NCBI GenBank assembly: GCA_963752155.1
Contig: CAVVXH010000006.1
Coordinates: forward strand, 217,809-281,808
Source: an uncultured Parachlamydiaceae bacterium
GTDB taxonomy: Bacteria > Chlamydiota > Chlamydiia > Chlamydiales > Parachlamydiaceae
DNA length: 64,000 nucleotides
Direction: 5' to 3'
Part shown: piece by piece, positions 11,277 through 62,245 of the stretch
How positions within the stretch are numbered: position 1 is the stretch's first letter
How the letters are laid out: every line of letters begins with the position of its first letter
Translations under genes and position numbers: made by a program
Notes under the pieces: generated by a model
Told to the model about the DNA's origin: nothing
Databases searched by the model: none
What the model saw: the letters and a program-made list of their open reading frames with translations, nothing else

Positions 11277-11410
11277 GCTATGTTCACCTGTACACGAGAA
11301 ACTTTCGCTCAATTATTCCTCCTCTGTGATCTCTGTGGTAAAAAAAATCTACCACAGAGATCACAGAGAACACAGAGGAGGAATAATTAAGCGAAGAAGT
11401 GAACAAGGCT
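11277..11410. repeat. Palindromic repeat family D, full copy, between convergent genes
   Basis: Arms ...CAATTATTCCTCCTCTGTGATCTCTGTGGTA / TACCACAGAGATCACAGAGAACACAGAGGAGGAATAATT... The right half recurs at 477-525. Confidence 0.8.
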
Positions 11411-12490: not shown

Positions 12491-12553
12491 TTTAGGGATT
12501 GGGCAAAAATAACTTGCACGATTGAGCAAGTTATTATTGCTCAGTCCCTTAAA
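12491..12553. repeat. Family C hairpin (short form) in the kbl-tdh intercistronic gap
   Basis: TTTAGGGATTGGGCAAAAATAACTTGC-ACGATTGA-GCAAGTTATTATTGCTCAGTCCCTTAAA. Its base touches the kbl stop codon and the tdh SD. Confidence 0.8.
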
Positions 12554-17224: not shown

Positions 17225-18307
17225 ATGTATTTAAAATCACTCTATCTCTATAACTTTCGGTTATACCAAGAAGCGGTTTTTGATTTCTGCCCGCATCTCA
17301 ATATGATCTGTGGGCCTAATGCAGCTGGCAAAACATCGCTCATCGAAGCTATTTGTTTTCTAGCTGCCGGTCATTCTTTTCGTTCACATCAGACAGCTCA
17401 CCTCATTAGAAATGGGTCTTCATACTTCTATCTCGAAGCGATCTTTGTAAAACATGGAATCGAACAACGCCTTAAAATTACACACAGCCATAAAGAACGC
17501 AAAATATTTATTAATAACACAAGTTATTCTACAACCTCCAGCCTTGTTGGACTTCTCCTCACCGTGGTTTTTTCTCCGGCCGATATCGATCTCATAAAAG
17601 GAGGGCCACAAGGTCGAAGACAGTACCTAGATGAACAGCTGGCTCAGGCGGATCCTCTTTATCACTACCATTGTAATCGCTATGCACGGGCCATGCGTCA
17701 AAGAAATTGCCTTTTAAAAGCAAAAAATTTCAATTCAATTCACAGTTGGGAATATGAAATGGCGGTATCAGCCGCTTATCTCGTACAAAAACGTCTGGAG
17801 TTGCTTGAAGAGCTTCAAAAACACGCAAAGCTCTTTTATGAACAGATTGCTGAGGCAGACGAAGCTTTATCATTGGCATATCGTTCAGCATCCGGAAAAA
17901 TAAGCAACGATCAATCCGCGTTACGAATACATTTTCTTGAACAATATGAAAAAAATAGAGAACGAGAGGTCTTCTTTGCTAGTACACTTGTGGGACCTCA
18001 CAAAGACGAATTGACCGTTTCAATTGGAGAAAATGAAGCCCGCTATTTTGCAAGCGAGGGGCAAATGCGCTCCTGCGCAGCAGCACTGCGTTTAGCAGAA
18101 TGGAAGCGTCTAGAAACCTTTACAGGAGAAAAACCGTTAATGTTACTAGATGATATTTCAACAAGCTTAGATCAAAAGCGTACTGAACATTTGTTTCGAT
18201 TGTTAGATTCTCTGGGACAACTGTTTTTAACAGGCACAGAGGAACCTATTTGCTATCCTGACAATATTGAACGTAAAATGATTTCATTACCTAATTCAAT
18301 CTTATAA
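17225..18307 (+). CDS. recF: DNA replication and repair protein RecF
   Basis: Walker A GPNAAGKTS, signature ASEGQMRS, Walker B LMLLDDI. Start abuts the dnaN stop. Confidence 0.9.
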   Translation: MYLKSLYLYNFRLYQEAVFDFCPHLNMICGPNAAGKTSLIEAICFLAAGHSFRSHQTAHLIRNGSSYFYLEAIFVKHGIEQRLKITHSHKERKIFINNTSYSTTSSLVGLLLTVVFSPADIDLIKGGPQGRRQYLDEQLAQADPLYHYHCNRYARAMRQRNCLLKAKNFNSIHSWEYEMAVSAAYLVQKRLELLEELQKHAKLFYEQIAEADEALSLAYRSASGKISNDQSALRIHFLEQYEKNREREVFFASTLVGPHKDELTVSIGENEARYFASEGQMRSCAAALRLAEWKRLETFTGEKPLMLLDDISTSLDQKRTEHLFRLLDSLGQLFLTGTEEPICYPDNIERKMISLPNSIL

Positions 18308-18314
18308 AAAAGGA

Positions 18315-18823
18315 CGATATTAGAAGCGAGACAAGTTGCCTGCGGCGCGCCCTATCAGAGAATAACAAATGTTTAAAGCGCCTTGCCATTGGTGCCTGAC
18401 CTGATATTCTGACATTTGCCGATGCAATAACATTGCTTCCTAAAGGGCAAATGTCAGAATGTCAGGTCTGGAACCAAGGCCAGAACATTACCCCCAAGAG
18501 GACAGCAAGGACAACAGGAAACGCGGAACAAATCGGTCAATAGAAATTTTTAATATCATTAAGGATGCTTGTTTGCTTGCTGTCCTTGCCGTCCTTGCTG
18601 TCCTCTGAGAGGTAACGTTCTGGCCTTGGTTCCAGACCTGACATTCTGATATTTGCCCTCCCGGGAGGTTATGTCATCATTTTAGGCAAATATCAGAATA
18701 TCAGGTCAGGCACCAATGGCAAGGCGCTTTAAAATTTTGTTATTTCCCAATAGGGGCACCGCAGACAACTGTCTCGCTTTGTGTTTAATTTTTCCTATAC
18801 TTCGTATCCCGATATCGCAGCAC
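18315..18823 (-). repeat. Family A element, copy A2 (inverted relative to A1), carrying a nested AAGGAC palindrome
   Basis: Same arms as A1, with hairpin loops that are the reverse complements of the A1 loops. The central module is replaced at ~18498-18606 by GAGGACAGCAAGGACAACAGG...GCTGTCCTTGCCGTCCTTGCTGTCCTC. Confidence 0.9.
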
Positions 18824-21785: not shown

Positions 21786-21950
21786 TAAGGGATTGGGCAA
21801 TAACAACTTGTGCGATTGGGCAACGCGAAAGCTCCCGTGGTTGAACGATCGAAAGTGACCCAATATTATAATATGGGGTCACTTTCGATCGTTCAACCAC
21901 GGGGCTTTGGCGCAGCCGAATCGTGCAAGTTATTTTTACCCAGTCCCTAA
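21786..21950. repeat. Family C palindrome (long form with a second palindrome nested in its loop)
   Basis: Outer arms TTAAGGGATTGGGCAATAACAACTTG / CAAGTTATTTTTACCCAGTCCCTAAG. Inner arms GCTCCCGTGGTTGAACGATCGAAAGTGACCC / GGGGTCACTTTCGATCGTTCAACCACGGGGC. Confidence 0.85.
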
Positions 21951-22929: not shown

Positions 22930-25794
22930 TTAAGATATAACGCAGTTGTCAACAGGTTGATTTTCCTGACGAATACCTCGAGCCTCCAAAGCTTTCTGCA
23001 GAGCAAGTACATCGCGCATAATACTTTGTTTGGCAGCCAGTTCAGCATTAATGAGTGATTGGTTCCCACTTGAGCAAGCTTTCTCAAAACTGATCCTTGC
23101 AGCTTGGAGCTTTTGATTTGCAACTACTAACCTCGTTTGAAGGTCCAAAGTTGAGACTGCTGCTAAGCTCGAATCATGTGAAGTAGCAGCCGCTACCATT
23201 CTTCCAAATCCTACAAAAGGACTCGTTGGTTGATCAACTTTTCGAGGTTGTTTTTTTTGCGTAGCTAAGAATTCAATTGCATCCTCATACCCTTGATCGG
23301 CAGCCTTTTGGTACCATTTGAGTGACTTTTGCACATTCCTTTGACATCCCATTCCTTCGTAAAAACATTGAGCTACTTCATATTGAGCCACAGCATCCCC
23401 CGCTTTCGCCCCTTCTTTAAATAATTGGAAAGCTAAACGATTATTTTGTCTACATCCGCTCCCCTCTTGATAACAATAAGCCAGATCTATTTTTGCTGCG
23501 ATATGTCCATCTTTGGCCAATTCTTCATACATTTTAAAAGCAAGTGTTTCGTCAGGATCACATCCTATTCCATCACAATAACAATTTGCAAGTTCATATT
23601 TTGCCTCTAAATAAACGGGTGAAATGCGTTGTAAAATAGACACACCTTTTGCTTCATTTTCATCGCAACCAGTCCCTCTAAGATAGCAAAGAGCCAATTG
23701 ATATTGCGCTGCCGGAAAATCAGATTGATCTAACTTTGTTAGAAGTTCAAAAGCTTTAACCTCGTCTATATCACAGCCTGAACCTTCGAGATAGCACATG
23801 GCTAGTTCAAATTGAGCCTCTAAATAATCGGGTGAAATGCGTTGTAAAATAGACACCCCTTTTGCTTCATTTTCATCGCAACCAGTGCCGTTGAGATGGC
23901 AAAGAGCCAATTGATATTGTGCTGCCGCAAAATCAGGTTGATCTAACTTTGTTAGAAGTTCAAAAGCTTTAACCTCGTCTATTTCACAGCCTGAACCTTC
24001 GAGATAGCAGATAGCTAGTTCAAATTGAGCCTCTAAATAATCGGGTGAAATGCGTTGTAAAATAGACACCCCTTTTGCTTCATTTTCATCGCAACCAGTG
24101 CCGTTGAGATGGCAAAGAGCCAATTGATATTGCGCTGCCGGAAAATCGGGTTGATCTAACTTTGTTAGAAGTTCAAAAGCTTTAACCTTGTCTATACCGC
24201 AACCTGAACCTTCAAGATAGCACATGGCTAGTTCAAGTTGAGCCTCTAAATAATCGGGTGAAATGCGTTGTAAAATAGACACCCCTTTTGCTTCATTTTC
24301 ATCGCAACCAGTGCCGTTGAGATGGCAAAGAGCCAATTGATATTGTGCTGCCGGAAAATCGGGTTGATCTAACTTTGTTAGAAGTTCAAAAGCTTTAACC
24401 TTGTCTATACCGCAACCTGAACCATTGAGATAACACATAGCTAATTCAAATTGAGCATCTAAATAATCGGGTAAAATGCGTTGTAAAATAAAAAATCCCT
24501 TTGCTTCATTTTTATCGCAACCAGTGCCGTTGAGATGGCAAAGAGCCAATTCAAACTCTGCTGCCGGAAAATCAAACGCTATCTCCGTTAAAAGTTCAAA
24601 AGCTTTTACCTTATTAATATCGCAACCAGTACCATTTAAAAGACACTTAGCTAATGTAAATTGAGCATCCTTGAACTCTTCCAAGTCAGGGTTTAATAAC
24701 AATGCAAATCCCTTATCTACATCTTGGTTGCATCCCGTTCCATCTAGATAACATAAGGCCAGATGATAATAGGAATAAGAGTTGCCATTCTCAGCATCGA
24801 GTTCAAAAAGTTTAAAAGCTTTGGCTTCATCTTTTTCACAACCAGTGCCATTTAAATAACATAAAGCTAAATTATAATTGGCTTCTTTTTTGCCTTTCGC
24901 AGCAACAAATTCAAAATGTTTAAATGCTTGAACCTCATCTATTTTACAACCTAGTCCACAAACCTGACATAAAGCTAATCCATACAAAGCATCTATTTTT
25001 ACAGCAAAATTATCTGATTCTGCTGCAATACTAAAATGCTTCTTCGCAATCTTAAGATTTTTCTGAAAGCAAAACTCAGCTACATCTAGATGACAATCTA
25101 AATTGTCTGCTTTTAATCTTTCAAATAAGCTTACAAGGTGTCCTGGGATTAAAAAATTAAAAGTAGAACTAAGCATTACTAAAGGTACAAATTGATTTAA
25201 ATCTTCATCATAAAGATACAAAAAAATATTAGAAATTGGTTTTCTTGTTAATGGATTCAAAGGACAAAATGGATCATTTTTAATTAATTCATATAGACTG
25301 CAACCGTCTAAAGGATATAAATGAGTGGAGTCAGTGTCATTGATAAGAGCCAAAAGATAGGGCAGTTTATTACTTTTTTTATCTTCCATGAGTTCTTTAA
25401 AACTTATTTGAGCGATCATATCAATTTCATCTACATCAATTTTTGCCTTAGACAATAGAAATTTACCGCAAATCTCGCCCAAATTGATTTTAATATAGCT
25501 CTTATTATCATCAGAAGGTTCTGAATTTGATATTTCGTTCCCTTTTAAAACGAAAATTTGTTTCTCTGAGTTAAATAAAAAATGGAAAATCTTCACTTTA
25601 GGATACAATTCTGCAATGTCAACACTTTCTTGAATCGTCATAGGAAATAGGTCTAACGAGAACTCAGTCAGTTTAACTAAAGCAAACTCCTGTGTTTTCT
25701 GATCTTTAGGGGAAATGATTTTTGCCTTAGAGACTTGAAGCGGAATAAATAAGCTTTTTGCATCTACTTTTCTAGAAAATGTATTGTCTATCAT
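22930..25794 (-). CDS. Sel1/TPR-like repeat protein (954 aa) with a distinct N-terminal domain and a C-terminal coiled coil
   Basis: More than 15 Sel1-type units (A.YxLAxCYxxGxGC..D..KAF). AAGGAG SD upstream. Confidence 0.88.
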   Translation of the reverse strand: MIDNTFSRKVDAKSLFIPLQVSKAKIISPKDQKTQEFALVKLTEFSLDLFPMTIQESVDIAELYPKVKIFHFLFNSEKQIFVLKGNEISNSEPSDDNKSYIKINLGEICGKFLLSKAKIDVDEIDMIAQISFKELMEDKKSNKLPYLLALINDTDSTHLYPLDGCSLYELIKNDPFCPLNPLTRKPISNIFLYLYDEDLNQFVPLVMLSSTFNFLIPGHLVSLFERLKADNLDCHLDVAEFCFQKNLKIAKKHFSIAAESDNFAVKIDALYGLALCQVCGLGCKIDEVQAFKHFEFVAAKGKKEANYNLALCYLNGTGCEKDEAKAFKLFELDAENGNSYSYYHLALCYLDGTGCNQDVDKGFALLLNPDLEEFKDAQFTLAKCLLNGTGCDINKVKAFELLTEIAFDFPAAEFELALCHLNGTGCDKNEAKGFFILQRILPDYLDAQFELAMCYLNGSGCGIDKVKAFELLTKLDQPDFPAAQYQLALCHLNGTGCDENEAKGVSILQRISPDYLEAQLELAMCYLEGSGCGIDKVKAFELLTKLDQPDFPAAQYQLALCHLNGTGCDENEAKGVSILQRISPDYLEAQFELAICYLEGSGCEIDEVKAFELLTKLDQPDFAAAQYQLALCHLNGTGCDENEAKGVSILQRISPDYLEAQFELAMCYLEGSGCDIDEVKAFELLTKLDQSDFPAAQYQLALCYLRGTGCDENEAKGVSILQRISPVYLEAKYELANCYCDGIGCDPDETLAFKMYEELAKDGHIAAKIDLAYCYQEGSGCRQNNRLAFQLFKEGAKAGDAVAQYEVAQCFYEGMGCQRNVQKSLKWYQKAADQGYEDAIEFLATQKKQPRKVDQPTSPFVGFGRMVAAATSHDSSLAAVSTLDLQTRLVVANQKLQAARISFEKACSSGNQSLINAELAAKQSIMRDVLALQKALEARGIRQENQPVDNCVIS
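23590..24480 (-). repeat. Near-identical 213-bp (71-aa) tandem repeats inside the Sel1 gene, about 4 units
   Basis: The landmark GAAATGCGTTGTAAAATAGACAC recurs at 23621, 23834, 24047 and 24260, with a diverged copy at ~24473. The period is exactly 213 nt. Confidence 0.9.
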
Positions 25795-26012: not shown

Positions 26013-26305
26013 TCAACGGTATAAACGATAAAAACGATAAAAACGATAAAAACGATAAGAACGATAAAAACGATAAGAACGATAAAAACGATAAAAACGA
26101 TAAGAACGATAAGAACGATAAGAACGATAAGAACGATAGGAAAGCTAGGACGGTCCAAAAGTCTCCCCAAACTCCCTCATGACCTCGCGCTCATGGCCTC
26201 AAGACAACAGTTTCGAATGGCGCCTGTCAATTCATTGTTCCTATCGTTCTTATCGTTCTTATCGTTCCTATCGTTCTTATCGTTCCTATCGTTCTTATCG
26301 TTGAT
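26013..26305. repeat. Inverted arrays of 9-bp tandem repeats around a ~95-bp core
   Basis: Left: about 14 units of (A)ACGATAA(A/G)A. Right: about 7 units of the complement TTCTTATCG / TTCCTATCG. A unique GC-richer core lies at 26141-26237. Confidence 0.9.
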
Positions 26306-26460
26306 TACGTCTACATAAAAAAAGCATATCCAGACAACACATCGTGGTTTCATCTACAAAAAAATCCAACCTCCACTTTATGAGAAGTCACAAAAAAAAT
26401 TTGAAGTTAATTACACGGAGGTGGCAAGCCCAAGCCATCCGCCCCCAAAAAACTATTTCG

Positions 26461-27477: not shown

Positions 27478-27746
27478 GTTAAACCTCTTATATATCTTTT
27501 TAATTGTCAGTATGAGTGGCAATTCTCAGAATGTAATGATAGCATTAAATTAAGTCAAGATCATAAAATTATGTTTAAAATTTTATGAAGTAAAATTTTA
27601 TAAAATTATTTTGATAATGTTAAATATTAAATTGAAATGACACTTTCTGAAACATCCCCTATTGAAGGATGAGTTTTAAAAAAATTATTTTGATAAGGTT
27701 AAAAAAATAATTTAACTGATATTTTTGAAAAGACAGAAAAAAATGA

Positions 27747-27910
27747 TATAGATCTTTTCACATGACTTCATAACAAAATTCTAGCAGATTTTGACATAGA
27801 TTGCAGACGAAGAAAACGTGACATACATGGATGTAGGCGCGTTTTCTTCATCCGCAAGATATGTCAAAAGATGCAGAATTTTGTTACGAAGTCATGTGAA
27901 AAGATCTATA
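27747..27910. repeat. Imperfect ~70-bp-arm palindrome upstream of tamA
   Basis: TATAGATCTTTTCACATGACTTCATAACAAAATTCT... / ...AGAATTTTGTTACGAAGTCATGTGAAAAGATCTATA. The fragment TCTTTTCACATGA recurs at ~48768. Confidence 0.75.
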
Positions 27911-28004
27911 ACATCCAAAAAGTGGTGGATCTCCTTATTTTGTTGATTATGCTCATTAACATGACGTATAATGGTGGGTGTGTTTCATTTAGATTGAGAG
28001 AGCG

Positions 28005-32913: not shown

Positions 32914-34698
32914 ATGGAATCATTACAACCAGCAGGCATAACAAGTATCCATTTAGGACAAACATTTCCTCAAGGAATCAAAGTAGATCTTGACAAACTA
33001 CCTTATGATGTCTTCATGAACATTATAAATTCTCTAGACAACGAAGAGGGTGTCAGCAACACACTTTCAAATGAAGAGATCAAACAATTTACATTACAAT
33101 CAAATGAAAAAGGAAGCCATTACATTAAGGCTGCAGTAGAATTATTATCTAAAAATTTGACAGAGGATAAAGACCATGAGTTGAGAGATGATATCTCAAA
33201 TATCAGCACAAATAAAATTAAAGATTCAAAAAATATAAACGAAGTAAGATCATCAATTTTAGATGCAGAAGGTCAATTAATAAAATCTCTTTCAAAATTA
33301 AATGCTCAAGACTTAAATAAACTATTGAATTCCTGTTTAGAATCACATGGTGGAATTGAAACTTATAAAGATATAATTCCATTGATTAAAGAAGTCATCG
33401 ATCAAACATCCGAACTTTTTGATCCATTAAAATTTCAATCTAAAATGGAAAATGTGAAAAAAATAGAAAACTCTGAAGATAAAGTCAATTCTTTAGTTTC
33501 TATTCTACTACCTTACCTTCATAAAAACTTAAATAACTCACCTGAATTTCGGGAATTAATATCTTCAATAGATATGGGCACCCTAGTTAATTCAGAAGAG
33601 GCCTACAGTCTTGAGGCCAAAATGGGAATTGCTGCGTTTGATAAAATAAAAAGTGGCGAAGAAAAATATAATTATTTTATGAGTCTCTGGAACGGACCAG
33701 GTAAGAGTTTAGAACTAGTTCAGTTACTTCATAAAATACCTTCCCCAGAACGTATTGCACTTGAAGTGGCAAAATATGCTTTTAAAGAAGGTGATGACGA
33801 TAAAGCACTCGAAGCTATTAAATTAAGTCCAGTAGACGAAAGGGGTAAAGTCATAATTTCATTTTGCGAACAATTGCTTAATGAAAATAAATATGATAAA
33901 ATTGAAGAGTTTCTTGCATATCTACCTGCCCAACGATCCTTGCCGCATAGTTACGAAACGGCTCTCCAGGGAATACTCCTAAGTGTTACCGAAGAGTATA
34001 TTGATCTTGGCAAATACGATGAAGCTAAAAGGTTTGTAGAAATTATTCTTTCTATTAATCATGATCAAACCGATGATAACAGAAGAGTGAGTCGTGTACA
34101 GGTCTTTTTCAACATGGCCGCACGACTTCTTCTCGAAAATACCGCTATCCCAGAAGGAATGGAGATTCTAAAGTCGCTTTTAGAAACAGAAAAAGAAATC
34201 CATTCTTTTAAAGCAATTAGCGGAGTCCGATCTTGTGTGTCATTGTCGGTAAAGCTTGCTCAACGAGGTCAATATGATGATGCTCTTAAATGCGTTAATT
34301 TAATTACCGATATTCCTTCAGGAATTAGATCTGTGCAACCAGAATTAAAGACTTCCGCTCTTTATGATATCTTTAAGCTCCTTTTCGAAAGAGGCCTTAC
34401 AGAAAAAGCATTACAAGTTGCAGAATCTCTCGATGCAGGCTCTTATAAAGATAAGGCATATAAATTAATTTCTGAAAAATATGCTAATCGTGGCGATTAT
34501 CCATCGGCAGTAAAAAATGCCCAGATAATTCAAGATAAGACAATAGCAAGTGCAACTTATACTTATATCTGTAAAAAGATTTGTTCTAGAAATGACTTTG
34601 AATTTGCTAAAATTGTAGCAAATTCTATAGAAATTGATGAAGATAAAGAAAAAGTTTTAAACTTTATAAAAGAAATGGAATTTCCAAAAAAACGTTAA
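32914..34698 (+). CDS. Paralog 1 of a tandem three-gene family (594 aa; helical TPR-like C-terminal half)
   Basis: AAGGAG SD. Collinear similarity to 34983..36761 and 37134..38921 along the whole length. N-terminal LPYDVFMNIINSLD motif. Confidence 0.8.
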   Translation: MESLQPAGITSIHLGQTFPQGIKVDLDKLPYDVFMNIINSLDNEEGVSNTLSNEEIKQFTLQSNEKGSHYIKAAVELLSKNLTEDKDHELRDDISNISTNKIKDSKNINEVRSSILDAEGQLIKSLSKLNAQDLNKLLNSCLESHGGIETYKDIIPLIKEVIDQTSELFDPLKFQSKMENVKKIENSEDKVNSLVSILLPYLHKNLNNSPEFRELISSIDMGTLVNSEEAYSLEAKMGIAAFDKIKSGEEKYNYFMSLWNGPGKSLELVQLLHKIPSPERIALEVAKYAFKEGDDDKALEAIKLSPVDERGKVIISFCEQLLNENKYDKIEEFLAYLPAQRSLPHSYETALQGILLSVTEEYIDLGKYDEAKRFVEIILSINHDQTDDNRRVSRVQVFFNMAARLLLENTAIPEGMEILKSLLETEKEIHSFKAISGVRSCVSLSVKLAQRGQYDDALKCVNLITDIPSGIRSVQPELKTSALYDIFKLLFERGLTEKALQVAESLDAGSYKDKAYKLISEKYANRGDYPSAVKNAQIIQDKTIASATYTYICKKICSRNDFEFAKIVANSIEIDEDKEKVLNFIKEMEFPKKR

Positions 34699-34708
34699 TT
34701 GAGTTCTC

Positions 34709-34850
34709 GGGCAAGCAAGGACGGCAAGGACAACAGGCAAGGACGAAAAGGACAGAGGTAGTACCCTGTCATCCATGATCTATAGTGTCGTCCTTGCTGT
34801 CCTTGTCGTCCTTGTGCCGTCCTTGCCGTCCTTGCCTTCCTTTCAAAATA
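34709..34850. repeat. AAGGAC-type palindrome (family E) directly after paralog 1
   Basis: GGCAAGCAAGGACGGCAAGGACAACAGGCAAGGACGAAAAGGACAG ... GTCGTCCTTGCTGTCCTTGTCGTCCTTGTGCCGTCCTTGCCGTCCTTGCC. Confidence 0.85.
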
Positions 34851-34878
34851 AAAGTATCAACTAAAAAATAACTAAAGT

Positions 34879-34907
34879 TTGACATTATATTAGCCACTCT
34901 ATATAAT
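34879..34907 (+). promoter_or_regulatory. Sigma-70-like promoter of paralog 2
   Basis: TTGACA (34879-34884), 17-nt spacer, TATAAT (34902-34907). Confidence 0.55.
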
Positions 34908-34982
34908 TCTAGGCAAACTATTCTTAATATCATAAGAATGACATTAAAAACTTACAAATAATATTAAATAAGGAGTGAAATT

Positions 34983-36761
34983 ATGGAATCATTACAATCA
35001 GGCATAACAAGTATCAATTTAGGACAAACATTTCCTCAAGGAATGAAAGTAGATTTTGACAAACTTCCTTATGATGCCTTCATGAACATCGTGAATTCTC
35101 TAGATAACGAAGAGGGTGTCAGCAACACATTTTCAAATGAAGAGATTAAGCAATTTACATTGCAATCAAATGAAAAAGGAAGCCATTATATCAAAGCTGC
35201 AATAGAATTATTATGTAAAAATTTGACAGATGATAAGTATAGGTATGTTAAAGATGATATCTCATCATTTCGCACAGATGATATTAAAAAATCAAAAAAT
35301 ATAAGAGAAGTTAAATCATCAATTTTACTTAAAGAAACTCAATTAATAGATAGGCTATCTAGATTAGATACTCAGGATTTAAATAAACTATTGAATTCCT
35401 GCTTAGAATCATCTGAAGGAATTGAAACTTATAAAGATATAATACCATTTATTAAAGAAGTCATCAATCAAACATCCGAACTTTTTGATCCATTAAAATT
35501 TCGTTCGAAAATTGAAAATGCAAAAAAAATAGAGGACTCCGAAAATAAAGTGAACGCAGTAGTATCTATATTCTTGCCTTATGTTCAGAGAAATCTACAC
35601 CTTGCACCTTTTTTTCAAACATTAAAAGCTTCAGTGGACAATCTATTCAATTCAGAAAATGAAGCCCGTAGTTTCGAAACCAAGATGTCAATTGCTCGGT
35701 TTGCTCAAGAAGATGTAGAAGACAGGTATGATTATTTTGTGAGTATCTGGAACGGACCAGGTAAGAGCTTAGAATTTGTTCAGTTACTTCATAAAATACC
35801 TTCCTCAGAACCTATTGCACTTGAAGTGGCAAAATTTGCTTTTAAAGAAGGTGATGAAGGTAAGGCTCTTGAAGCTATTAAATTAAGTTCAGAAAACGAA
35901 AGAGGTAAAGTCATACTTTCATTTTGTGAACAATTACTTAAAGAAAAAAAATATGATAAAATTGAAGAGTTTCTTGCATATCTCCCTACCCAACGATCCT
36001 GGGATCATAGTTACGAAACGGCTCTTCAGGAACTACTTACAAAAGTTATCGATGAGTATATTGATCTTGGCAAATACGATGAAGCTAAAAAGTTGGTGGA
36101 AACTATTTTTTCTAGTGGTCGTGATCAAACCGATGATAGCAGAAAAGTGACTCAAATAAAGATCTTTATCAACATGGGCACACGACTCCTTCTCGAAAAT
36201 AACGCTATCACAGAAGGATTGGAGATTCTAAAGTCAATTTTAGAAACAGAAAAAGAAATCCATTCTTTTAAAGCAATGAGCGGAATCCGTTCTTGTGTGT
36301 CATTATCAAAGACGCTTGCTGAACGAGGTCAATATGATGATGCTTTAAAATGCGTTAATTTAATTGCTGATATTCCTTCAGGAATTAGATCATCAGTGCA
36401 ACCAGAATTGAAGACTTCCGCTCTTAATGATATCTTTATGCTCCTTCTCGCAAGAGGATTTACAGAAAAAGCATTACAAGTTGCAGAATCTCTCGATATA
36501 GGCTCTTCTAAAGATGAGGCATATAGAATAATTTCTTCTAGATATGCCATTCATGGCGATTATCCATCGGCAGTAAAAAATGCTCAGATAATTCAAGATA
36601 AGATGAAAGCAAGTGTAGCCTTTACTTATATCTGTAAAAAGATTTGTTTTAGAAATGACTTTGAACTTGCTAAAGTTGTAGCAAATTCTATAGAAATTGA
36701 TGAAGATAAAGAACAAGTTTTAAACTTTATAAAAGAAATGGAAATTCCAAAAAAACGCTAA
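34983..36761 (+). CDS. Paralog 2 of the tandem family (592 aa)
   Basis: AAGGAG SD. Highly similar to paralog 1 from MESLQ to the C-terminal IEIDEDKE.VLNFIKEME.PKKR. Confidence 0.8.
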   Translation: MESLQSGITSINLGQTFPQGMKVDFDKLPYDAFMNIVNSLDNEEGVSNTFSNEEIKQFTLQSNEKGSHYIKAAIELLCKNLTDDKYRYVKDDISSFRTDDIKKSKNIREVKSSILLKETQLIDRLSRLDTQDLNKLLNSCLESSEGIETYKDIIPFIKEVINQTSELFDPLKFRSKIENAKKIEDSENKVNAVVSIFLPYVQRNLHLAPFFQTLKASVDNLFNSENEARSFETKMSIARFAQEDVEDRYDYFVSIWNGPGKSLEFVQLLHKIPSSEPIALEVAKFAFKEGDEGKALEAIKLSSENERGKVILSFCEQLLKEKKYDKIEEFLAYLPTQRSWDHSYETALQELLTKVIDEYIDLGKYDEAKKLVETIFSSGRDQTDDSRKVTQIKIFINMGTRLLLENNAITEGLEILKSILETEKEIHSFKAMSGIRSCVSLSKTLAERGQYDDALKCVNLIADIPSGIRSSVQPELKTSALNDIFMLLLARGFTEKALQVAESLDIGSSKDEAYRIISSRYAIHGDYPSAVKNAQIIQDKMKASVAFTYICKKICFRNDFELAKVVANSIEIDEDKEQVLNFIKEMEIPKKR

Positions 36762-36772
36762 TTGAGTTTCTC

Positions 36773-36855
36773 GGGCAAGCAAGGACGAAAAGGACAGGGG
36801 TACCCTGTCATCCTAATGATCTATAGTGTCGTCCTTGCTGTCCTTGCCGTCCTTA
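36773..36855. repeat. AAGGAC-type palindrome (family E, short copy) directly after paralog 2
   Basis: GGGCAAGCAAGGACGAAAAGGACAGGGGTACCCTGTCATCC...GTCGTCCTTGCTGTCCTTGCCGTCCTT. Confidence 0.8.
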
Positions 36856-36907
36856 AATTCTTAAGAAAAATCCAAACACAAACAAAACAAAAGTGTCAAC
36901 TAAAAAT

Positions 36908-36936
36908 TTGACATTTTATTAAATAACATGTATAAC
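36908..36936 (+). promoter_or_regulatory. Sigma-70-like promoter of paralog 3
   Basis: TTGACA (36908-36913), 17-nt spacer, TATAAC (36931-36936). Confidence 0.45.
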
Positions 36937-37133
36937 TAAAAGTAAGTAAGTATAGGACTCATATCAGTTAGCATTTTATCTAAAAACAAGAGGTGCATCC
37001 ATGGAATCATTAATAGAAATGCAATTTACAACTAACATCTTTAAACAAAATTCTCATTTAATAACATCCACATATCAACTAAATAAAAGAAATTTAAATA
37101 TCTATTTGATTCCTGTTAAAACAGGAGGAAAAT

Positions 37134-38921
37134 ATGGAACCATTAGATCCAAATGGATTGAGGAGGAGTGATAATTATGAACAGACATTGCCTCAAGAAC
37201 TCGAGAAAATAGATCCTAGAGGACTACCATTTAATGTATTTATGCACATTATAGATTTTCTAAATAATCCAGATATAAATAATCACCAAATCACCAGCAA
37301 ATTATCTATTGATCAAATCGATGAGTTTATTAATAAATCAAGTGAAAGAGGAACTCATTACATCAAGATTGCAATCGAACTTCTATGTAAAAAACTTGAC
37401 GTTAGTGATTTAAAAGAAAACATTTCAAATATCAGTTTAGACCAAATTAAAGAATCAAAAAACATAAGAGAAGTCAGGTCATCTATTTTAAAAACTGAGG
37501 ATCAATTAGTAAATTCTCTATCTAAATTAAACAATGAGGATTTAAATAGCCTGCTAAATTCTTGTCTAGAATCGGATAGAGACATTGAAAATTATAAAGA
37601 TATAATACCTTTAATTAAAGAAGTTATCAGTCAAACATTCGAACTAAAGGATATTTTTGATCCATTAAAATTTCAATCTAAAATTGAAAACACAAAAAGA
37701 ATTAAAAATTCTGAAGACAAAATAAATACTTTAGTTTCTATTCTTTTACCCTATATCTATAAAAATTTAGATGATTCGCCTGAATTTCAGAAATTGTGGA
37801 CTTCAATAAATACAGCTACTCTTTTTAACTCAGAAAAAGAACTTCATAATTTTTACTCCAAGGTGTCAATTGCAAAATTTGATAAAATAAATGATGGAGA
37901 AAAAAAATATGAAGAATTTTCGAAGATGTGGAACGGGCCAAATAAAAGTTTAGAGATGGTTGAGTTACTTCATAAAATTCCTTCTCCAGAGCGTATGGCA
38001 CTCGAAGTCGCAAGATTTGCTTTTAAACAAGGCGATGAAAATAAAGCACTTGAAGCTATTCAATTAAGTCGAATTAGCGAAAGATCTGAAGAGATCCTTT
38101 CATTCTGCCAACAATTATATAATGAAGGGAATTTTGATAAAATTTTGAAATTTCTTTCTTATTTACCTTCTCACCGCCCATGGCATTTTAGCTATGAAAA
38201 ATCTCTTCAGGCACTCATCTGGAAAATTATCATTGAGTTCATTGATCTAGGTAAATTCGATGAAGCTGAAATGCTAACAAATCACATTCTTTACATTCAA
38301 AATGATGAAATCTCTGAGGACAGCAAAAATGCACGAATAGAGATGCTTTGGAAAATGTCGGAACGACTGCTTCTTGCAAACAACAGGATCCCCGAAGGGA
38401 TGACCATTTTAGAGTCGATTTCAGATACACAAAAAGGAATCGTTTATTGTGCAGAATTGGCAAAAAAGCTCGCCCAGCAAGGCAAATACGATGAAGCTTT
38501 AAAATGTGCAGGTCTTATTGCTGATGTCCATGTAGGAATTGGAGGACCTCGGCAGCCGAAAGAAAAGTCTGAAGCTTTTTTTAAAATCTTTAATGTTCTT
38601 TTTGAAAGAGGACTTATAGAAAAAGCATTGGAAGTTGCAGAATCTATTGATAAATCCCCTTATAAGGATGAAGCCTTTAAATTAATTTCTCAAAAATATG
38701 CTGATCGATGCAAATATGTAGAAGCAGTAAAAATTGCTCTCCTCATTGAAGATAAAAAAATTGGAAGCCAAGCCTTTGTATATATTTGTAGAAAGCTTTA
38801 TTGGAGAAATGAATTCGAATTTGCTAAAATCGTCGCAAATAGCATAGAAATCGATGAAGATAAAAAACAAACTTTAGAAGCTATAAAAACGGCAATGGAG
38901 CAACCAAAAAATCGCAAATAG
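37134..38921 (+). CDS. Paralog 3 of the tandem family (595 aa, more diverged)
   Basis: AGGAGG SD. Collinear with paralogs 1 and 2 (e.g. HYIK.A.ELLCK, DIIPLIKEV, LHKIPSPER.ALEVA.FAFK.GD, IVANSIEIDEDK). Confidence 0.8.
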   Translation: MEPLDPNGLRRSDNYEQTLPQELEKIDPRGLPFNVFMHIIDFLNNPDINNHQITSKLSIDQIDEFINKSSERGTHYIKIAIELLCKKLDVSDLKENISNISLDQIKESKNIREVRSSILKTEDQLVNSLSKLNNEDLNSLLNSCLESDRDIENYKDIIPLIKEVISQTFELKDIFDPLKFQSKIENTKRIKNSEDKINTLVSILLPYIYKNLDDSPEFQKLWTSINTATLFNSEKELHNFYSKVSIAKFDKINDGEKKYEEFSKMWNGPNKSLEMVELLHKIPSPERMALEVARFAFKQGDENKALEAIQLSRISERSEEILSFCQQLYNEGNFDKILKFLSYLPSHRPWHFSYEKSLQALIWKIIIEFIDLGKFDEAEMLTNHILYIQNDEISEDSKNARIEMLWKMSERLLLANNRIPEGMTILESISDTQKGIVYCAELAKKLAQQGKYDEALKCAGLIADVHVGIGGPRQPKEKSEAFFKIFNVLFERGLIEKALEVAESIDKSPYKDEAFKLISQKYADRCKYVEAVKIALLIEDKKIGSQAFVYICRKLYWRNEFEFAKIVANSIEIDEDKKQTLEAIKTAMEQPKNRK

Positions 38922-45457: not shown

Positions 45458-45754
45458 ATCTGGCGCTATTTCAAGTTGACTTGGTAAAATTTTTTTGGAG
45501 TGCGTGTGGCTCTGCCACCGCAGAACGCAGCCTCTATACGAGTCATGCCGGTAGACGTTGCCTCCACTAACTCATACTCATACTATCGTTGTTACAATTT
45601 GAATTCTCCTTTGTTGTAGCGGTTAGAAAACTTGCTTGAGTTCTATCGAGGCTACGTCTACCGGCATGACTCGTATAGAGGCTGCGTTCTGCGGTGGCAG
45701 AGCCACACGCACTCCAAAAAATTTTTATCGAGTCAACTTGAAATAGCGCCAGAT
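45458..45754 (+). repeat. Family B long-arm palindromic element, copy B1
   Basis: ~107-nt arms, ~95% complementary by eye (ATCTGGCGCTATTTCAAGTTGAC...GCCGGTAGACGTTGCCTC / GAGGCTACGTCTACCGGC...GTCAACTTGAAATAGCGCCAGAT), around an ~83-nt core. Confidence 0.9.
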
Positions 45755-48758: not shown

Positions 48759-48791
48759 ACTGTAGGTCTTTTCACATGAAATCAGAACAAG

Positions 48792-49058
48792 TTTCAAGTT
48801 GACTTGGTAAAAATTTTTTGGAGTGCGCGTGGCTTTGCCACCGCAGAACGCAGCCTCTATACGAGTCATGCTGGTAGACGTTGCCTCCATTAACTCATAC
48901 TATCGTTGTTACAATTTGAATTCTCCTTTGTTGTAGCGGTTTAGAAAACTTGCTTGAGTTCTATCAAGGCTACGTCTGCCGGCATGACTCGTATAGAGGC
49001 TGCGTTCTGCGGTGGCAAAGCCACGCGCACTCCAAAAAATTTTTATCGGGTCAACTTT
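48792..49058 (+). repeat. Family B long-arm palindromic element, copy B2 (same orientation as B1)
   Basis: Near-identical to B1, including the core TAACTCATACTATCGTTGTTACAATTTGAATTCTCCTTTGTTGTAGCGGTT. Ends 3 nt from the nrdA stop codon. Confidence 0.9.
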
Positions 49059-49061
49059 CAA

Positions 49062-51419
49062 CTACCCACTACAACTTAAACAACCGGGTTCAAGAGAACA
49101 CACCCCAGAACTACTGCTGCTACTACTGCCATTGAGTCCTACACTCTCTACATTTTTCTTTAATGTAAACTTGATGGCCTCAGCTGCAGCCTTAGTTCTC
49201 AAATAATACATTCCTGTCTTCAACCCTAGCTTCCACGCATAAAACAACATCGATGTCAATTTCGAATAAGAAGGATTCTCAATAAACAGATTCAAAGATT
49301 GCGTCTGACAAACATACGGCCCACGTCCCTCAGGACCAGCCATATCAATTAATACTTTTTGCTTAAGTTCCCAAACAGTTCTATAGAGCAATTTAATATC
49401 TTCCGGTATCCCCTCAATCCCTTGAACAGAACCATTAGAGGCAAAAAGTTCATTCTTAACCCTTTCGTCCCACAATCCTAGGTCAACAAGATCACGCATG
49501 AGATCTTTATTAGCAACGATAAACTCCCCAGATAAAACCCGCCGAGTGTAAAGATTTTGAGTATACGGCTCAAAACATTCATTGTTTCCAAGAATTTGCG
49601 AGGTCGATGCCGTTGGCATCAAAGCAACCAATAAAGAATTGCGCACTCCAAATTTAGCAACAATCTCTTTCAATTTCTTCCAATCCCATCGTGGACCTGG
49701 TGTAACATTCCACATATCATACTGAAAGATTCCTTTTGATACGGGAGAACCTGGATATGTTTCATAAGGACCAAATTCCTGAGCAAGTTCACACGAAGCT
49801 GTCATCGCCCCGTAATAAATAGTTTCAGCTATTTCTCGATTTAATGCTCGAGCTTCATCTGAATCAAAAGGCATCCTTAATCGAATGAACGCATCCGCTA
49901 ACCCTTGAACACCTATGCCAATGGGGCGGTGCCGAGAATTAGAAAGCTTAGCAGCTTCAACTGGATAACTATTCCCATCAATCACTCGATTTAAATTCTT
50001 TGTGATCACTTTAGTGACTTCAAAAAGCCGTTGATGATCAAATTTCCCATCGAGAATAAATCGCGGCAAAGCAATTGAAGCCAGGTTGCAAACAGCTATT
50101 TCATCCGGTGAAGTGTACTCGACAATCTCAGCACATAAATTGCTTGATTTGATCGTTCCTAAATTTTGTTGATTTGATTTACCGTTACAAGCATCCTTAA
50201 ACAAGATATAGGGGGTTCCCGTTTCAATTTGGGACTCTAAAATCTTAAACCACAGATGCTGGGCTTTTACCACCTGCTTAGCTTTTCCTTCACTTTCATA
50301 ACGCCTGTACAGATCGACAAATTCTTGCCCCCAGCAATCATCAAGACCCGGAGCTTCATTAGGACAAAACAGAGACCACTCTCCATTTTCTTCTACGCGT
50401 TGCATAAAGAGATCCGGCACCCACAGAGCCGTAAAGAGATCGCGCGCGCGCACCTCTTCTTTTCCTGTGTTTTTTCTTAAATCAAGAAATGCGTAAATAT
50501 CAGCATGCCATGGCTCCAAGTAGACTGCAAAAGATCCTTTTCGTTTTCCTCCCCCTTGATCGATGTAACGTGCTGCATCATTAAACACGCGAAGCATAGG
50601 AATAATTCCATTAGAAGTTCCTCCTGTACCTCGAATATAAGAACCGGTTGCACGCACATTGTGAATGCTTAAGCCAATACCACCGGCAGATTGAGAGATT
50701 TTAGCACAGGCCTTAAGGGTATCAAAAATTCCATCGATACTGTCTTCTTTCATTTGCAATAAAAAGCAGGACGACATCTGCGGATTTGGCATTCCTGCAT
50801 TGAAAAGCGTGGGGGTGGCGTGAGTAAACCACCGTTCGCTCATTAAATGATATGTTTCAAGGGCGGATTGAATGTCCTTTTTATGAATCGCTAAAGCCAC
50901 CCTCATTAACATGTGCTGAGGGCGTTCTACGACACGACCATTCATCCTTAATAAATAAGAACGCTCCAGGGTTTTAAAGCCAAAATAATCGTATCCAAAA
51001 TCACGATCATAGATGATTGAAGCATCCAGAATTTCTGCATGCTCTTGAGAAAGATCATAAAGCTCTTCCGATATTAAGCCCGATTTCTTTTGAGTTTTAC
51101 TATCGACGTAGTGATAAAGCCCTTTCATCGTTTCAGAAAACGATTTGAGTGTATTTTTTTGTAAATTGGAAATGGCTATACGTGCAGCCAATATCGCATA
51201 ATCAGGATGACGCGTTGTCATTGTAGCTGCGACTTCAGCGGCTAAATTATCGAGTTCACTCGTTGTCACCCCATCATACAAGCCTTCAATCACCTTAAAA
51301 GCCACTAATGACGCATCAATATGATCACGATCGAGGCCATAAGAAAGTTTTTGTATTCTGGCGGTAATTTTATCAAATTTGACAGACTCACGCCTACCAT
51401 TTCGTTTTATGACATCCAT
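49062..51419 (-). CDS. nrdA: Ribonucleoside-diphosphate reductase, alpha subunit (class Ia)
   Basis: N-terminal ATP cone [16 protein letters not shown]. Catalytic SNLCAEI and [12 protein letters not shown]-terminal redox tail CLSCSG after a poly-Ser linker. Confidence 0.93.
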
Positions 51420-56101: not shown

Positions 56102-56198
56102 GAAGTGGCATAAGTACTTAGGGATCATTTGGTTAGTAGGTAGGAGACTGTACAAATGATAAAAAAGTGGCAGTCAAGTTATTATTGCACAGTCCCTT

Positions 56199-56440
56199 AC
56201 CCCCAAGATTTACGCAACTGAAAAAAGCGTCGTTTTCAATTAATAACAAGATACTAAATTCTGAGAGGTAACGTTTAGCCTTGGTTCCAGACCTGACATT
56301 CTGACATTTGCCCTCCTGGGAGGTTACGTTATCATTGTAGGCAAATGTCAGAATATCAGGTCAGGCACCAATGGCAAGGTGCTTTAAAAATCTGTTATTT
56401 CCCGATAGGGGGCGCCGCAGGCAACTGTCTCGCTTTGCAG
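56199..56440 (-). repeat. Family A element, half copy A3 (inverted orientation), preceded by a family C fragment at 56169-56198
   Basis: Reverse complement of the left half of A1, from ACCCCCAAGATTTACGCAACTG to GGCGCCGCAGGCAACTGTCTCGC. Confidence 0.85.
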
Positions 56441-61692: not shown

Positions 61693-61841
61693 TTAAATCC
61701 CTATTAATATAATATTATTTATTAATCGCAAACAATCAAACTATAGTATATCATAAAATAAAATTTCAGACAAGAGCAAAATCAGTACCAATCCCTAGAC
61801 TTTTTAATTGCCATTTGATAGTGGTAAATGCTACATTTAAT

Positions 61842-62245
61842 GTATAGGAAAAATTAAACGCAAAGCGAGACAGTTGCCTGCTGCGCCCCCTATTGGGAAA
61901 TAACAAATTTTTAAAGCGCCTTGCCATTGGTGCCTGACCTGATATTCTGACATTTGCCTAAAATGTAACGTAACCTCCCAGGAGGGCAAATGTCAGAATG
62001 TCAGGTCTGGAACCAAGGCCAGAACGTTACCTCTCAGAATTAAGTATCTTGTTATTAATTGAAAACGACGCTTTTGCTTCTTTCAGTTGCGTAAAACTTG
62101 GGGGTAACGTTCCAGCCTTGGTTCCAGACCTGACATTCTGACATTTGCCCTTTAGGAAGCAATGTTATCGCATCGGCAAATGTCAGAATGTCAGGTCAGG
62201 CACCAATGGCAAGGCGCGAACTTGTTATTTAGGAGGCACAAAGAA
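61842..62245 (+). repeat. Family A element, copy A4 (same orientation as A1; right terminal repeat replaced by a family H fragment)
   Basis: Collinear with A1 from GTATAGGAAAAATTAAACGC to GGCGCGAACTTGTTATTTAGGAGGC. Confidence 0.9.

Follow-up and report, generated by a model that had tools for sequence, protein, structure and literature searches.

Introduction

What kind of element is the ~515-nucleotide (nt) imperfect palindrome that lies directly behind a recF-like gene of an uncultured Parachlamydiaceae bacterium, and why do its arms still pair where their sequence has changed? The palindrome, read from the sequence at 18309-18823 and called A2 below, is one of four copies of a repeat family (family A) in the 64,000-nt stretch of contig CAVVXH010000006.1 that was analysed, referred to throughout as the window. 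Two features of A2 had been singled out in an earlier sequence-only reading, namely a central module replaced by a different palindrome and a double substitution that leaves one stem paired, the latter being taken to indicate either selection for the structure or templated repair within the hairpin. The sequence observations on A2 are confirmed. We consider it likely that family A belongs to the repetitive extragenic palindromic (REP)/REPIN kind (TIRtron type) as a dispersed repeat, non-coding and non-autonomous, that is arranged in inverted dimers, and a compensated pair and a swapped apex are ordinary for an element of this kind.

REPINs are REP doublets that form hairpins; compensatory changes are common among them, and they occur in clusters and in two alternative folds, hairpin and clover (Bertels & Rainey, PMC3116915). 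Together with the REP-associated tyrosine transposases (RAYTs), they are discussed as long-lived, vertically inherited replicators, documented mainly in gammaproteobacteria and with Group 2/3 RAYTs (PMC5581495). TIRYT systems comprise RAYT-like genes accompanied by inverted repeats with the sequence GGGGWSAS, and some of these terminal inverted repeats (TIRs) form dispersed families, including dimers and clusters (Di Nocera et al. 2013, PMC3733652). Y1 proteins bearing a Bac_DnaA_C domain constitute subclass 2.1, for which no adjacent repeat families were found (Quentin et al. 2018, PMC6006769). The literature searched contains no description of family A, which itself falls within the known REP/REPIN kind and is not a new phenomenon; it also yielded nothing relevant on palindromic repeats, REPs, or miniature inverted-repeat transposable elements (MITEs) in Parachlamydiaceae, Protochlamydia, or Neochlamydia.

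Results

The unit of family A is a hairpin module of ~100 nt, composed of a 36-nt arm, a loop of ~27 nt, and a second 36-nt arm (X, loop, and X' as reverse complement). In a full copy, four related arms of ~36 nt alternate between forward and reverse orientation, beginning with forward; the two at the outside are of type X (TGCCATTGGTGCCTGACCTGATATTCTGACATTTGCC) and the two at the inside of type X' (TGGCCTTGGTTCCAGACCTGACATTCTGACATTTGCC). Its two modules are inverted around a centre and carry loops that are homologous yet different, alpha (TACAATGATAACGTAACCTCCCAGGAG) and beta (GATGCGATAACATTGCTTCCTAAAG), and further outer modules, O (AAGCGAGACAGTTGCC...) and T (AAGTATAGGAAAAATTAAAC), stand on one or both sides. 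The window holds 14 arms, paired into seven hairpins at four sites (0 arms expected by chance), and a covariance model of the module matched exactly these seven hairpins. All 21 elements examined, in the window and in a related genome, are intergenic. An origin of A2 by fold-back (hairpin-primed) duplication was ruled out, as A2 retains the alpha/beta loop heterodimer of A1 and A4.

Arms of this family also occur in another genus. A scan with the arm sequence over one genome per species gave at least 26 matching stretches, with 24 among the matches listed coming from the Parachlamydiaceae metagenome-assembled genome (MAG) JACCRY01. This MAG carries at least 25 homologous modules, some of them single and others joined in inverted dimers that have two types of loop and a centre of ~78 nt, and more than 40 arms in 24 loci. 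It represents a different genus, with a RecF protein 68% identical to that of the source organism, two other orthologues at 59-66%, no DNA similarity detected by megablast, and a different gene directly after recF. Arms of the window and of the MAG are nonetheless ~89% identical, whereas loops and centres are not conserved. A metagenome scan with the window-specific arm gave no match, and a relaxed scan gave 36 stretches, mostly single and probably due to chance, the useful ones being contigs L030, L032, L046, L061, and L062.

Contig L061 contains a truncated open reading frame (ORF) for a Y1/HUH transposase, bracketed by two arm copies. The ORF matches Pfam Y1_Tnp (E = 2e-15) and the NCBIfam model 'REP-associated tyrosine transposase' (NF047646; E = 4.8e-19, 68.7 bits, below the curated 80-bit cut-off), with IS200 at E = 0.0034. 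Its full-length homologues of ~313 amino acids combine Y1_Tnp with a Bac_DnaA_C-like C-terminal domain; the HUH motif (NHIH) and the tyrosine motif RYIHLNPxRA are invariant in six of them, and most of the 120 best homologues have precomputed Pfam assignments to PF01797 and PF08299. Searching PDB sequences with the Y1 protein gave no match. A 58-nt repeat that contains the arm (40-97, 641-697) cuts the L061 gene short near residue 176; its copies are direct, not inverted, and the transposase gene appears to have been disrupted by the repeat family associated with it.

Inverted flanking repeats were found in the DNA around each of eight further homologues. The arm sequence (...CCTGAYATTCTGAYATTTGCC) flanks Y1 genes in inverted orientation at four independent loci. 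At L069/L070, ATTGGTGTCAGGCCTGACATTCTGACATTT lies ~50 nt before the ATG and AAATGTCAGAATGTCAGGCCTGGCACCAAT at the stop codon; at L072/L073, whose protein is labelled by NCBI 'transposase [Parachlamydiaceae bacterium]' (HEV8051168.1), GGGGTCAGGCCTGACATTCGGACATTTGGG stands upstream and AAATGTCCGAATGTCAGGCCTGACCCC downstream; at L076 the two repeats are GGGGTCAGGCCTGGCATTCGGACATTT and AAATGTCCAAATGCCAGGCCTGACCCC; and L079 has a related variant, GGTGCCAGGCCTGAGTTCCTGAGTCTTT upstream and its inverse downstream. A more distant variant, GGGGTCAGGCTTGGTATTTGGGTAT, occurs inverted in L071, L074, L075, and L030, on one side only in the last three. Every variant consists of a G-rich head followed by a tandem 8-mer, and L032 contains a hairpin doublet with the canonical GGGGTCAGGCC head and arm. 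The GGGGWSAS sequence is represented by GGGGTCAG in L072, L076, L071, and L032; the MAG arm, GGTGTCAG, agrees with it at seven of eight positions, and the window arms, GGTTCCAG and GGTGCCTG, at five of eight. The chain of homology that runs from the transposase-flanking repeat through the MAG arm to the window arm thus points to a REPtron/TIRtron arrangement. Beside the dispersed copies themselves, Pfam searches of 20 window ORFs and of 124 ORFs next to MAG copies found no transposase; the 186 kb of the 24 MAG loci contain no Y1 gene, and the ORFs that separate widely spaced arm pairs in L013 and L032 are genes of ordinary kinds.

The flanks of the RAYT-like genes are themselves set in short tandem arrays (L069 at 3900-4000 and 4950-5060, L072 at 140-260), among them seven copies of AAAGGGGTCAG in L072 and repeats of CAATTTCC in L069; half-arms are also duplicated on the upstream side of the gene. 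Many of the RAYT homologues lie on contigs of ~1 kb, which, with the broken assemblies, is consistent with multi-copy flanking repeats in those organisms.

The recF-like gene (17225-18307), with dnaN upstream, ends 2 nt before A2, and 78 bases separate the end of A2 from the next gene. Two pairs of segments account for its symmetry, 18350-18420 with 18685-18755 (90% complementary) and 18444-18512 with 18591-18659 (93%), and the minimum-energy fold of the whole strand is a single long hairpin (-175 kcal/mol, z = -26). From left to right, A2 begins with a terminal remnant (18309-18323, ..GACGATATTAG), in which, compared with the left end of A1 and the right end of A2 itself, ~29 nt of the A1/A4 terminal module are gone. 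The outer module O follows on the plus strand (18324-18383, AAGCGAGACA(A)GTTGCC...AAAGCGCCT), with its inverted partner at 18722-18779. The first hairpin (H1) consists of a REP/TIR-like arm of type X (18384-18420, plus strand), a loop assigned to type beta by the module alignment (18421-18445, plus strand), and an inverted arm of type X' (18446-18482, minus strand). The apical segment (18500-18603) lies between two inner flanks common to A1, A3, and A4, ...AACATTACCCCCAAGA (18483-18499) and TCTGAGAGGTAACGTTC (18604-18620). The second hairpin (H2) has an X' arm with the variant T at 18650 (18621-18657, plus strand), an inverted alpha loop that differs from that of A3 at four positions (18658-18684, minus strand), and an inverted X arm with the variant A at 18692 (18685-18721, minus strand). 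The right end is formed by O' and the terminal module T' (18722-18823, minus strand, ..GTTTAATTTTTCCTATACTT..CCCGATATCGCAGC). The outer X arms (18383-18410 on the plus strand, 18722-18695 on the minus strand) each contain a sigma-70-like arrangement, TTGCCA, 16 nt, and TATTCT, with a TG extended -10, facing the centre; the T of the outer Y site of the X arm falls inside the -10-like hexamer, and the -35-like part is not kept in MAG JACCRY01.

The other window copies are mosaic in make-up. A1 (5155-5645, plus strand), in the opposite orientation to A2, has hairpins at 5255-5359 and 5440-5542 around a central module M, and in its right arm the place that O' takes in A2 is filled by a foreign hairpin with a perfect stem of 20 bp (5565-5608). 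A4 (61838-62237, plus strand), truncated at its right end, has hairpins at 61920-62023 and 62111-62213 and the same centre. A3 (56198-56440, minus strand), which like A2 is inverted relative to A1 and A4, is a half element without the left half, retaining M (56209-56259), one hairpin (56274-56378), and module O; it abuts a diverged copy of another palindrome family, family C, at 56143-56196.

The double change noted in the sequence-only reading is present as described: in H2 of A2, CTGATATTTGCC (18646-18657) faces GGCAAATATCAG (18685-18696), with T18650 opposite A18692, and C (or G) stands at this site in 12 of the 12 other window arms. We aligned 33 modules (seven from the window and 26 others) over 105 positions. 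In the 36-bp local stem 90.4% of cells are paired and four positions carry fixed mismatches, one of them the T·T of columns 17/92, which both genera share; most copies in either genus also retain the mismatches at columns 6/103 and 8/101. Each CTGAYATT unit contains one Y/R site, usually a G·T wobble: the pair at columns 25/84 is UG in 26 modules, CG in four, and UA in three, and the site of the A2 change, columns 33/76, is UG in 25, CG in seven, and UA in one; C·A never occurs at either site. All seven stem deviations of the window hairpins keep or improve pairing. One compensated pair was observed in these hairpins against 0.013 expected under random placement (P = 0.013), and the A2 change is unlikely to represent two random hits. 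Compared with its nearest relative, A3, H2 of A2 differs at two of 74 stem bases, which are the pair itself, and at four of 27 loop bases. The MAG shows three independent compensated events (L005a at columns 19/90, L017 at 11/98, and a subfamily pair at 40/69) against 0.65 expected for the six cells counted.

The two halves of a composite match each other better by long-range symmetry (0-5 differences) than their arms do by local complementarity (5-7); the private covarying pairs (A2 column 33, L005 column 19, and column 40), by contrast, are all complementary within the local hairpin and unlike between the halves, and the local hairpin is therefore the covarying unit. Stems vary less than loops, by a factor of about 1-10 within loop types, but the MAG copies contain 23 uncompensated stem mismatches and 12 wobble changes, so that individual copies decay. 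The calculated energies of the A2 hairpin are -28.4 kcal/mol with T:A at columns 33/76, -29.8 with C:G, -26.4 with T·G, and -25.2 with C·A; one mismatch costs 2-4 of ~29 kcal/mol, which weakens the case for selection on stability. The proposal that the pair reflects selection for structure or templated repair is thus upheld insofar as compensation exceeds chance and covariation is purely local, and is tempered by the wobble route, by the low cost of a mismatch, and by the decay of MAG copies.

The second half of that proposal, taken alone, would make both the paired change and the maintenance of the hairpin purely mutational, with replication template-switching copying one arm onto the other and no selection for structure. 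This is a possibility to be taken seriously, if not the probable one. Template switching is an established mechanism that creates compensatory changes in one event, and multi-base perfecting of one arm is its signature (PMC8794818). Five of 25 MAG modules show this pattern: the outer 17 nt of the 3' arm are the exact complement of the 5' arm at three otherwise fixed mismatch sites, perfected together on that one arm, and two more modules are partly converted. The pairs in L005a and L017 are G:C-to-T:A transversions, which have no wobble intermediate. Frequent homogenisation should, however, erase the mismatches at 17/92, 6/103, and 8/101, which persist, and conservation of the arms between genera goes far beyond what neutrality would predict. 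Template switching accounts for the pair and not for the identity of the element, and as a source of variants it is compatible with a REP/REPIN-type repeat.

We regard as rather unlikely, though close to the preceding account, that no double substitution took place. In this case, H2 of A2 would descend from a T·G ancestor by a single neutral G-to-A change that gave T:A, the other copies having changed from T to C; a transition at a G·T site always produces Watson-Crick pairing, and if the ancestor was T·G, one ordinary neutral transition is enough, which moderates any conclusion on selection. The prevalence of UG at columns 33/76 (25 of 33 modules) agrees with such a course, as does the sister site 25/84, which is T·G in five of the seven window hairpins and also occurs resolved as T:A (A1-H1) and C:G (A4-H2); A2 is, moreover, the most diverged copy. 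Within the window, parsimony slightly favours a C:G ancestor (two steps versus three), since six of the seven hairpins, covering both loop types and including A2-H1, are C:G, although only seven hairpins of the source genome are at hand.

The apex of A1, A3, and A4 is a 51-nt module M (TTTACGCAACTG...ACTAAAT), flanked in A3 by ...CCCCCAAGA and TCTGAGAGG... and in A1 and A4 by the reverse complement of the same sequences. In A2 the space between identical flanks, the first of which ends at 18499 while the second begins at 18604, is filled by 104 nt made up of the 9-mers AAGGACNNC / GNNGTCCTT in inverted orientation. The A2 apex is an exact replacement of M, with no remnant of it, and not an insertion into M; the earlier observation of a swapped central palindrome therefore stands, with exact limits at 18500-18603, and the minimum-energy fold places it at the tip of the large structure, as had been claimed. 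The same reading had assigned the A2 centre to a family that also follows paralogs 1 and 2. The motif is indeed there: GTCCTTGNNGTCCTT, with up to one mismatch, has 12 matches in the window against 0.05 expected, all at 18498-18605, 34717-34842, and 36781-36854. The two stand-alone GTCCTTGCN-repeat palindromes lie at 34709-34850, 11 nt past the stop codon of paralog 1, and at 36773-36856, its tandem-duplicate counterpart after paralog 2. Their likeness to the A2 centre is limited to the 9-mer, the middles being different, and they have one origin, because both belong to one tandem gene duplication of ~2.06 kb. The GTCCTTGCN motif was absent from 64 other loci searched. In the MAG, the centre of the dimer L011 is likewise replaced by an unrelated palindrome; taken together, A2 and L011 show, at the level of sequence, that the apex is the most replaceable part of the composite.

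The window contains several intergenic palindromes with inverted arms of tandem 9-nt repeats (26015-26311, 11304-11395, 34709-34850, 36773-36856, and 18500-18603), the repeat units being AACGATAAR (14 copies) facing YTATCGTTC (seven copies), CACAGAGAA (2.8 copies), and GTCCTTGCN. DnaA domain IV reads 9-bp boxes, and the transposase family linked to family A has a DnaA-domain-IV-like helix-turn-helix (HTH); the match to the 9-nt arrays is possibly a coincidence. It is conceivable, though very improbable, that the apex is an exchange slot, at which a RAYT/TIRYT system or hairpin-stalled replication swaps or captures palindromes and the 9-nt arrays are bound by the HTH; if true, several of the 9-mer-array palindromes of the source genome would be tied to the family-A system.

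Family C was the second case in which a palindrome had been thought to sit in the loop of another. Its members have TIRs beginning GGGAYTGRGYAA...; the short form (12495-12548, TIR GGGATTGGGCAA..) has TTA / TTA flanks, and the long form (21789-21947) has the same TIRs, TAA / TAA flanks, and an inner perfect palindrome of 35+35 nt (21834-21903), of which the window holds no other copy. The two forms have arms of ~25 nt in common, and the long form has an extra stem, CGATT:AATCG, the left half of which is also present, without a partner, in the short form's loop. A central deletion of the long form accounts for this without coincidence, whereas an inserted segment would have had to supply the matching 5-6 nt fortuitously. 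Family C is accordingly better read as a TTA/TAA-flanked MITE in forms shortened by central deletion than as a short form that received an insert. The claim that the long form is the short form with a palindrome in its loop is thus not borne out, a deletion series being simpler. The 3-nt direct flanks and TIRs are, as judged from the sequence, a DDE-type MITE signature, distinct from family A. The diverged copy beside A3 has the flanks GTA/TTA, and the spacer between the ADH and aminotransferase genes of three relatives lacks family C but has diverged so far that no exact empty site can be defined there. That nested elements always enter loops is likewise not established: A2 is a replacement, family C looks like a deletion series, and the foreign hairpin of A1 sits in an arm, and these cases, together with L011, do not show loop-targeted insertion.

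Other repeats were seen in the window and its relatives. A two-copy palindrome family (45458-45754 and 48790-49063) has arms of 97-107 nt, 92-96% complementary, and a centre of ~80 nt; a palindrome at 27743-27914 has 40-nt arms, and the motif TCTTTTCACATGA, found at 27753 and 48769, suggests more mosaic modules. A Sel1-repeat protein gene (23549-24714) contains a 213-nt tandem repeat in about five copies, 85-93% identical, and three paralogous genes of ~2.06-2.18 kb lie in tandem at 32914-38921; such expanded families are typical of environmental chlamydiae and are unrelated to family A. Contigs of the same organism (L027 and L028, Logan ERR11630394) end inside A2 and the long form of family C, and, with a contig of a relative whose RecF is 77% identical (L065, SRR16297629), they break in or just before the repeats after recF and at the long form. 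The contig of this relative ends 58 nt past recF, where the sequence, by eye, may resemble the terminal module of family A.

Discussion

The likeliest account of A2 is that two ~100-nt modules with different loop types, inverted around a short centre and extended by outer modules, together make up a palindrome of ~0.5 kb. The arm corresponds to the inverted repeat that a RAYT/TIRYT-type Y1 (HUH) transposase carries on either side of its own gene in relatives, a partner in the source genome being something that we infer. By analogy with TnpA of IS200/IS605 and with TnpA-REP of E. coli, the enzyme would act on hairpins in single-stranded DNA, and only copies whose local hairpin folds and whose recognised bases are present would be copied. 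Template switching and ordinary transitions may then supply the variants, and copying by a hairpin-recognising single-strand transposase may filter them; such a filter would explain why arms are conserved across genera and loops and centres are not, why covariation is local, and why fixed mismatches such as T·T at 17/92 persist. T18650:A18692 falls in the second of the tandem CTGAYATT units, at a Y/R position that would be under weak constraint, and would be a tolerated variant reached through a G·T intermediate or by template switching between arms during replication. The apical segment is probably the least constrained part, and that of A2 may have been exchanged for another palindrome by recombination or template switching. 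The idea of structural selection, put forward without a transposase, hence gains in such a partner of the REP/REPIN kind a concrete candidate reason for the maintenance of the hairpin.

Several points weigh against this account. The 64-kb window contains no Y1 transposase gene. For family A, neither an excision or insertion intermediate nor an empty site or target motif was found. The window arms have diverged from the TIR consensus, GGGGWSAS / GTCAGGCCTGAC, and could be relics that are no longer recognised. In the source genome the copied unit seems to be the whole composite and not the single hairpin, because A1 and A4 are 95-98% identical over ~400 nt. The sub-threshold NCBIfam score of L061 and the many uncompensated stem mismatches of the MAG copies belong here as well.

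Beside the two mutational accounts weighed above, we think it improbable that a DDE transposase which reads double-stranded TIRs mobilises family A as a conventional MITE or foldback element, hairpin pairing being a by-product of matching ends. The long terminal symmetry of the element, the differing centres of copies with common ends, as in many MITE families, and the neighbouring family C, whose direct TTA/TAA flanks do give it the appearance of a DDE-type MITE, would all suit such an origin, as would the lack of a Y1 gene in the window. No target-site duplication is definable for any copy, however: no consistent direct repeat surrounds A1-A4 or the single modules of the MAG, and the outer boundaries vary. 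The arms match repeats that flank Y1/RAYT-like genes at four or more independent loci, none of the 124 ORFs beside copies encodes a DDE transposase, and covariation tracks the local hairpin, the two arms of which do not form the termini of the ~0.5-kb element.

Equally little credit can be given to the view that the hairpins function in RNA or transcripts (as stabilisers of 3' ends, terminators, or small RNAs), with selection on their RNA structure and only incidental spread by a transposase. The distance to a stop codon is indeed 2-42 nt for all four window copies, the two Y sites tolerate G·U-type pairs and show no C·A in the X-to-X' reading, compensated pairs exceed random expectation, and REP and BIME elements affect mRNA stability (PMC3184786). 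Against this, an Rfam search of the window gave no match at the gathering score, permissive settings returning miRNA-hairpin hits at less than half the threshold; no terminator-like site was found, and a tRNA scan gave no tRNA. Copies stand in both orientations to neighbouring genes and, for some MAG elements, between divergent gene starts; the sequence is conserved beyond pairing, fixed mismatches included; on a given strand one hairpin of the composite has G·U and its partner C·A; and the 2-4 kcal/mol lost with a mismatch is small beside the whole. Readings as integron attC sites, CRISPR, or DnaA boxes were dropped, there being no integrase and no array, the arm sequence and not the structure alone being conserved, and the 9-mers being unlike TTWTNCACA.

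In family A the arms, and an architecture of two loop types in an inverted dimer, are kept between organisms of only ~59-68% protein identity. It would provide a second, phylogenetically remote system for the study of hairpin-dependent single-strand transposition and of REPIN population dynamics. Such repeats explain intergenic breaks in short-read assemblies of these chlamydiae, and annotators should treat palindromes of 0.1-0.5 kb of this sort as repeats and not as RNA genes.

Among known systems, bcr1 of the Bacillus cereus group (PMC3184786) resembles family A as a dispersed intergenic repeat, of ~155 bp, in which compensatory changes keep a cruciform-like structure; it differs in its 5-bp direct repeats, its transcription and MITE-like character, its unrelated sequence, and the lack of a link to a Y1 transposase. 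The quasi-palindromes altered by template switching (PMC8794818, PMC7202029) show the same paired or multi-base changes in one event and the patchwise perfecting of arms seen in the MAG copies, but this is a mutational process that leaves dispersal and cross-genus conservation unexplained. The bacterial interspersed mosaic elements (BIMEs) of E. coli (PMC3184786) are likewise mosaic, with alternating units parted by a small set of motifs, two alternating unit types (Y/Z in BIMEs, X/X' in family A), and 3' intergenic positions; their sequence is unrelated, the arms of family A are much longer, and there is no sign here of binding by IHF, gyrase, or Pol I.

Closer likeness is found with the REPIN-RAYT systems of Pseudomonas fluorescens SBW25 and E. 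coli (PMC3116915, PMC3337134). These have in common with family A an inverted pair of conserved ~20-36-nt sequences that forms a hairpin with a variable spacer, extragenic multi-copy occurrence as singlets, doublets, and higher-order clusters, a repeat that flanks a Y1/HUH transposase gene (for family A, in relatives), compensatory stem changes, and two alternative folds, a long hairpin and local hairpins ('clover'). Unlike REPs, the family-A arm lacks a GTAG/CGTC tag, and the window arm is not self-complementary, although the MAG and TIRtron versions contain GTCAGGCCTGAC. The partner belongs to neither Group 2 nor Group 3 of the RAYTs but to the longer Y1_Tnp plus Bac_DnaA_C type, a chlamydia relative takes the place of a gammaproteobacterium as host, and the copied unit seems to be an inverted dimer of ~0.4-0.5 kb with extra outer modules.

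The TIRtron/TIRYT systems (PMC3733652, PMC6006769) share with family A a RAYT-like transposase of ~310 amino acids with a C-terminal HTH similar to Bac_DnaA_C, gene flanks formed by inverted repeats with GGGGWSAS (here GGGGTCAG, in the four contigs named above), and, in some hosts, TIRs that form dispersed families of dimers and clusters. They differ in that the window arms have drifted from GGGGWSAS (five of eight positions) and in that the literature searched offers no chlamydial examples. Subclass 2.1 was reported without REP-like families, whereas here the repeat that flanks such genes is an abundant hairpin-doublet family, and the probable tie between a subclass 2.1 / TIRYT-type enzyme and a family of this kind, conserved across chlamydial genera, is the more useful result of this analysis.

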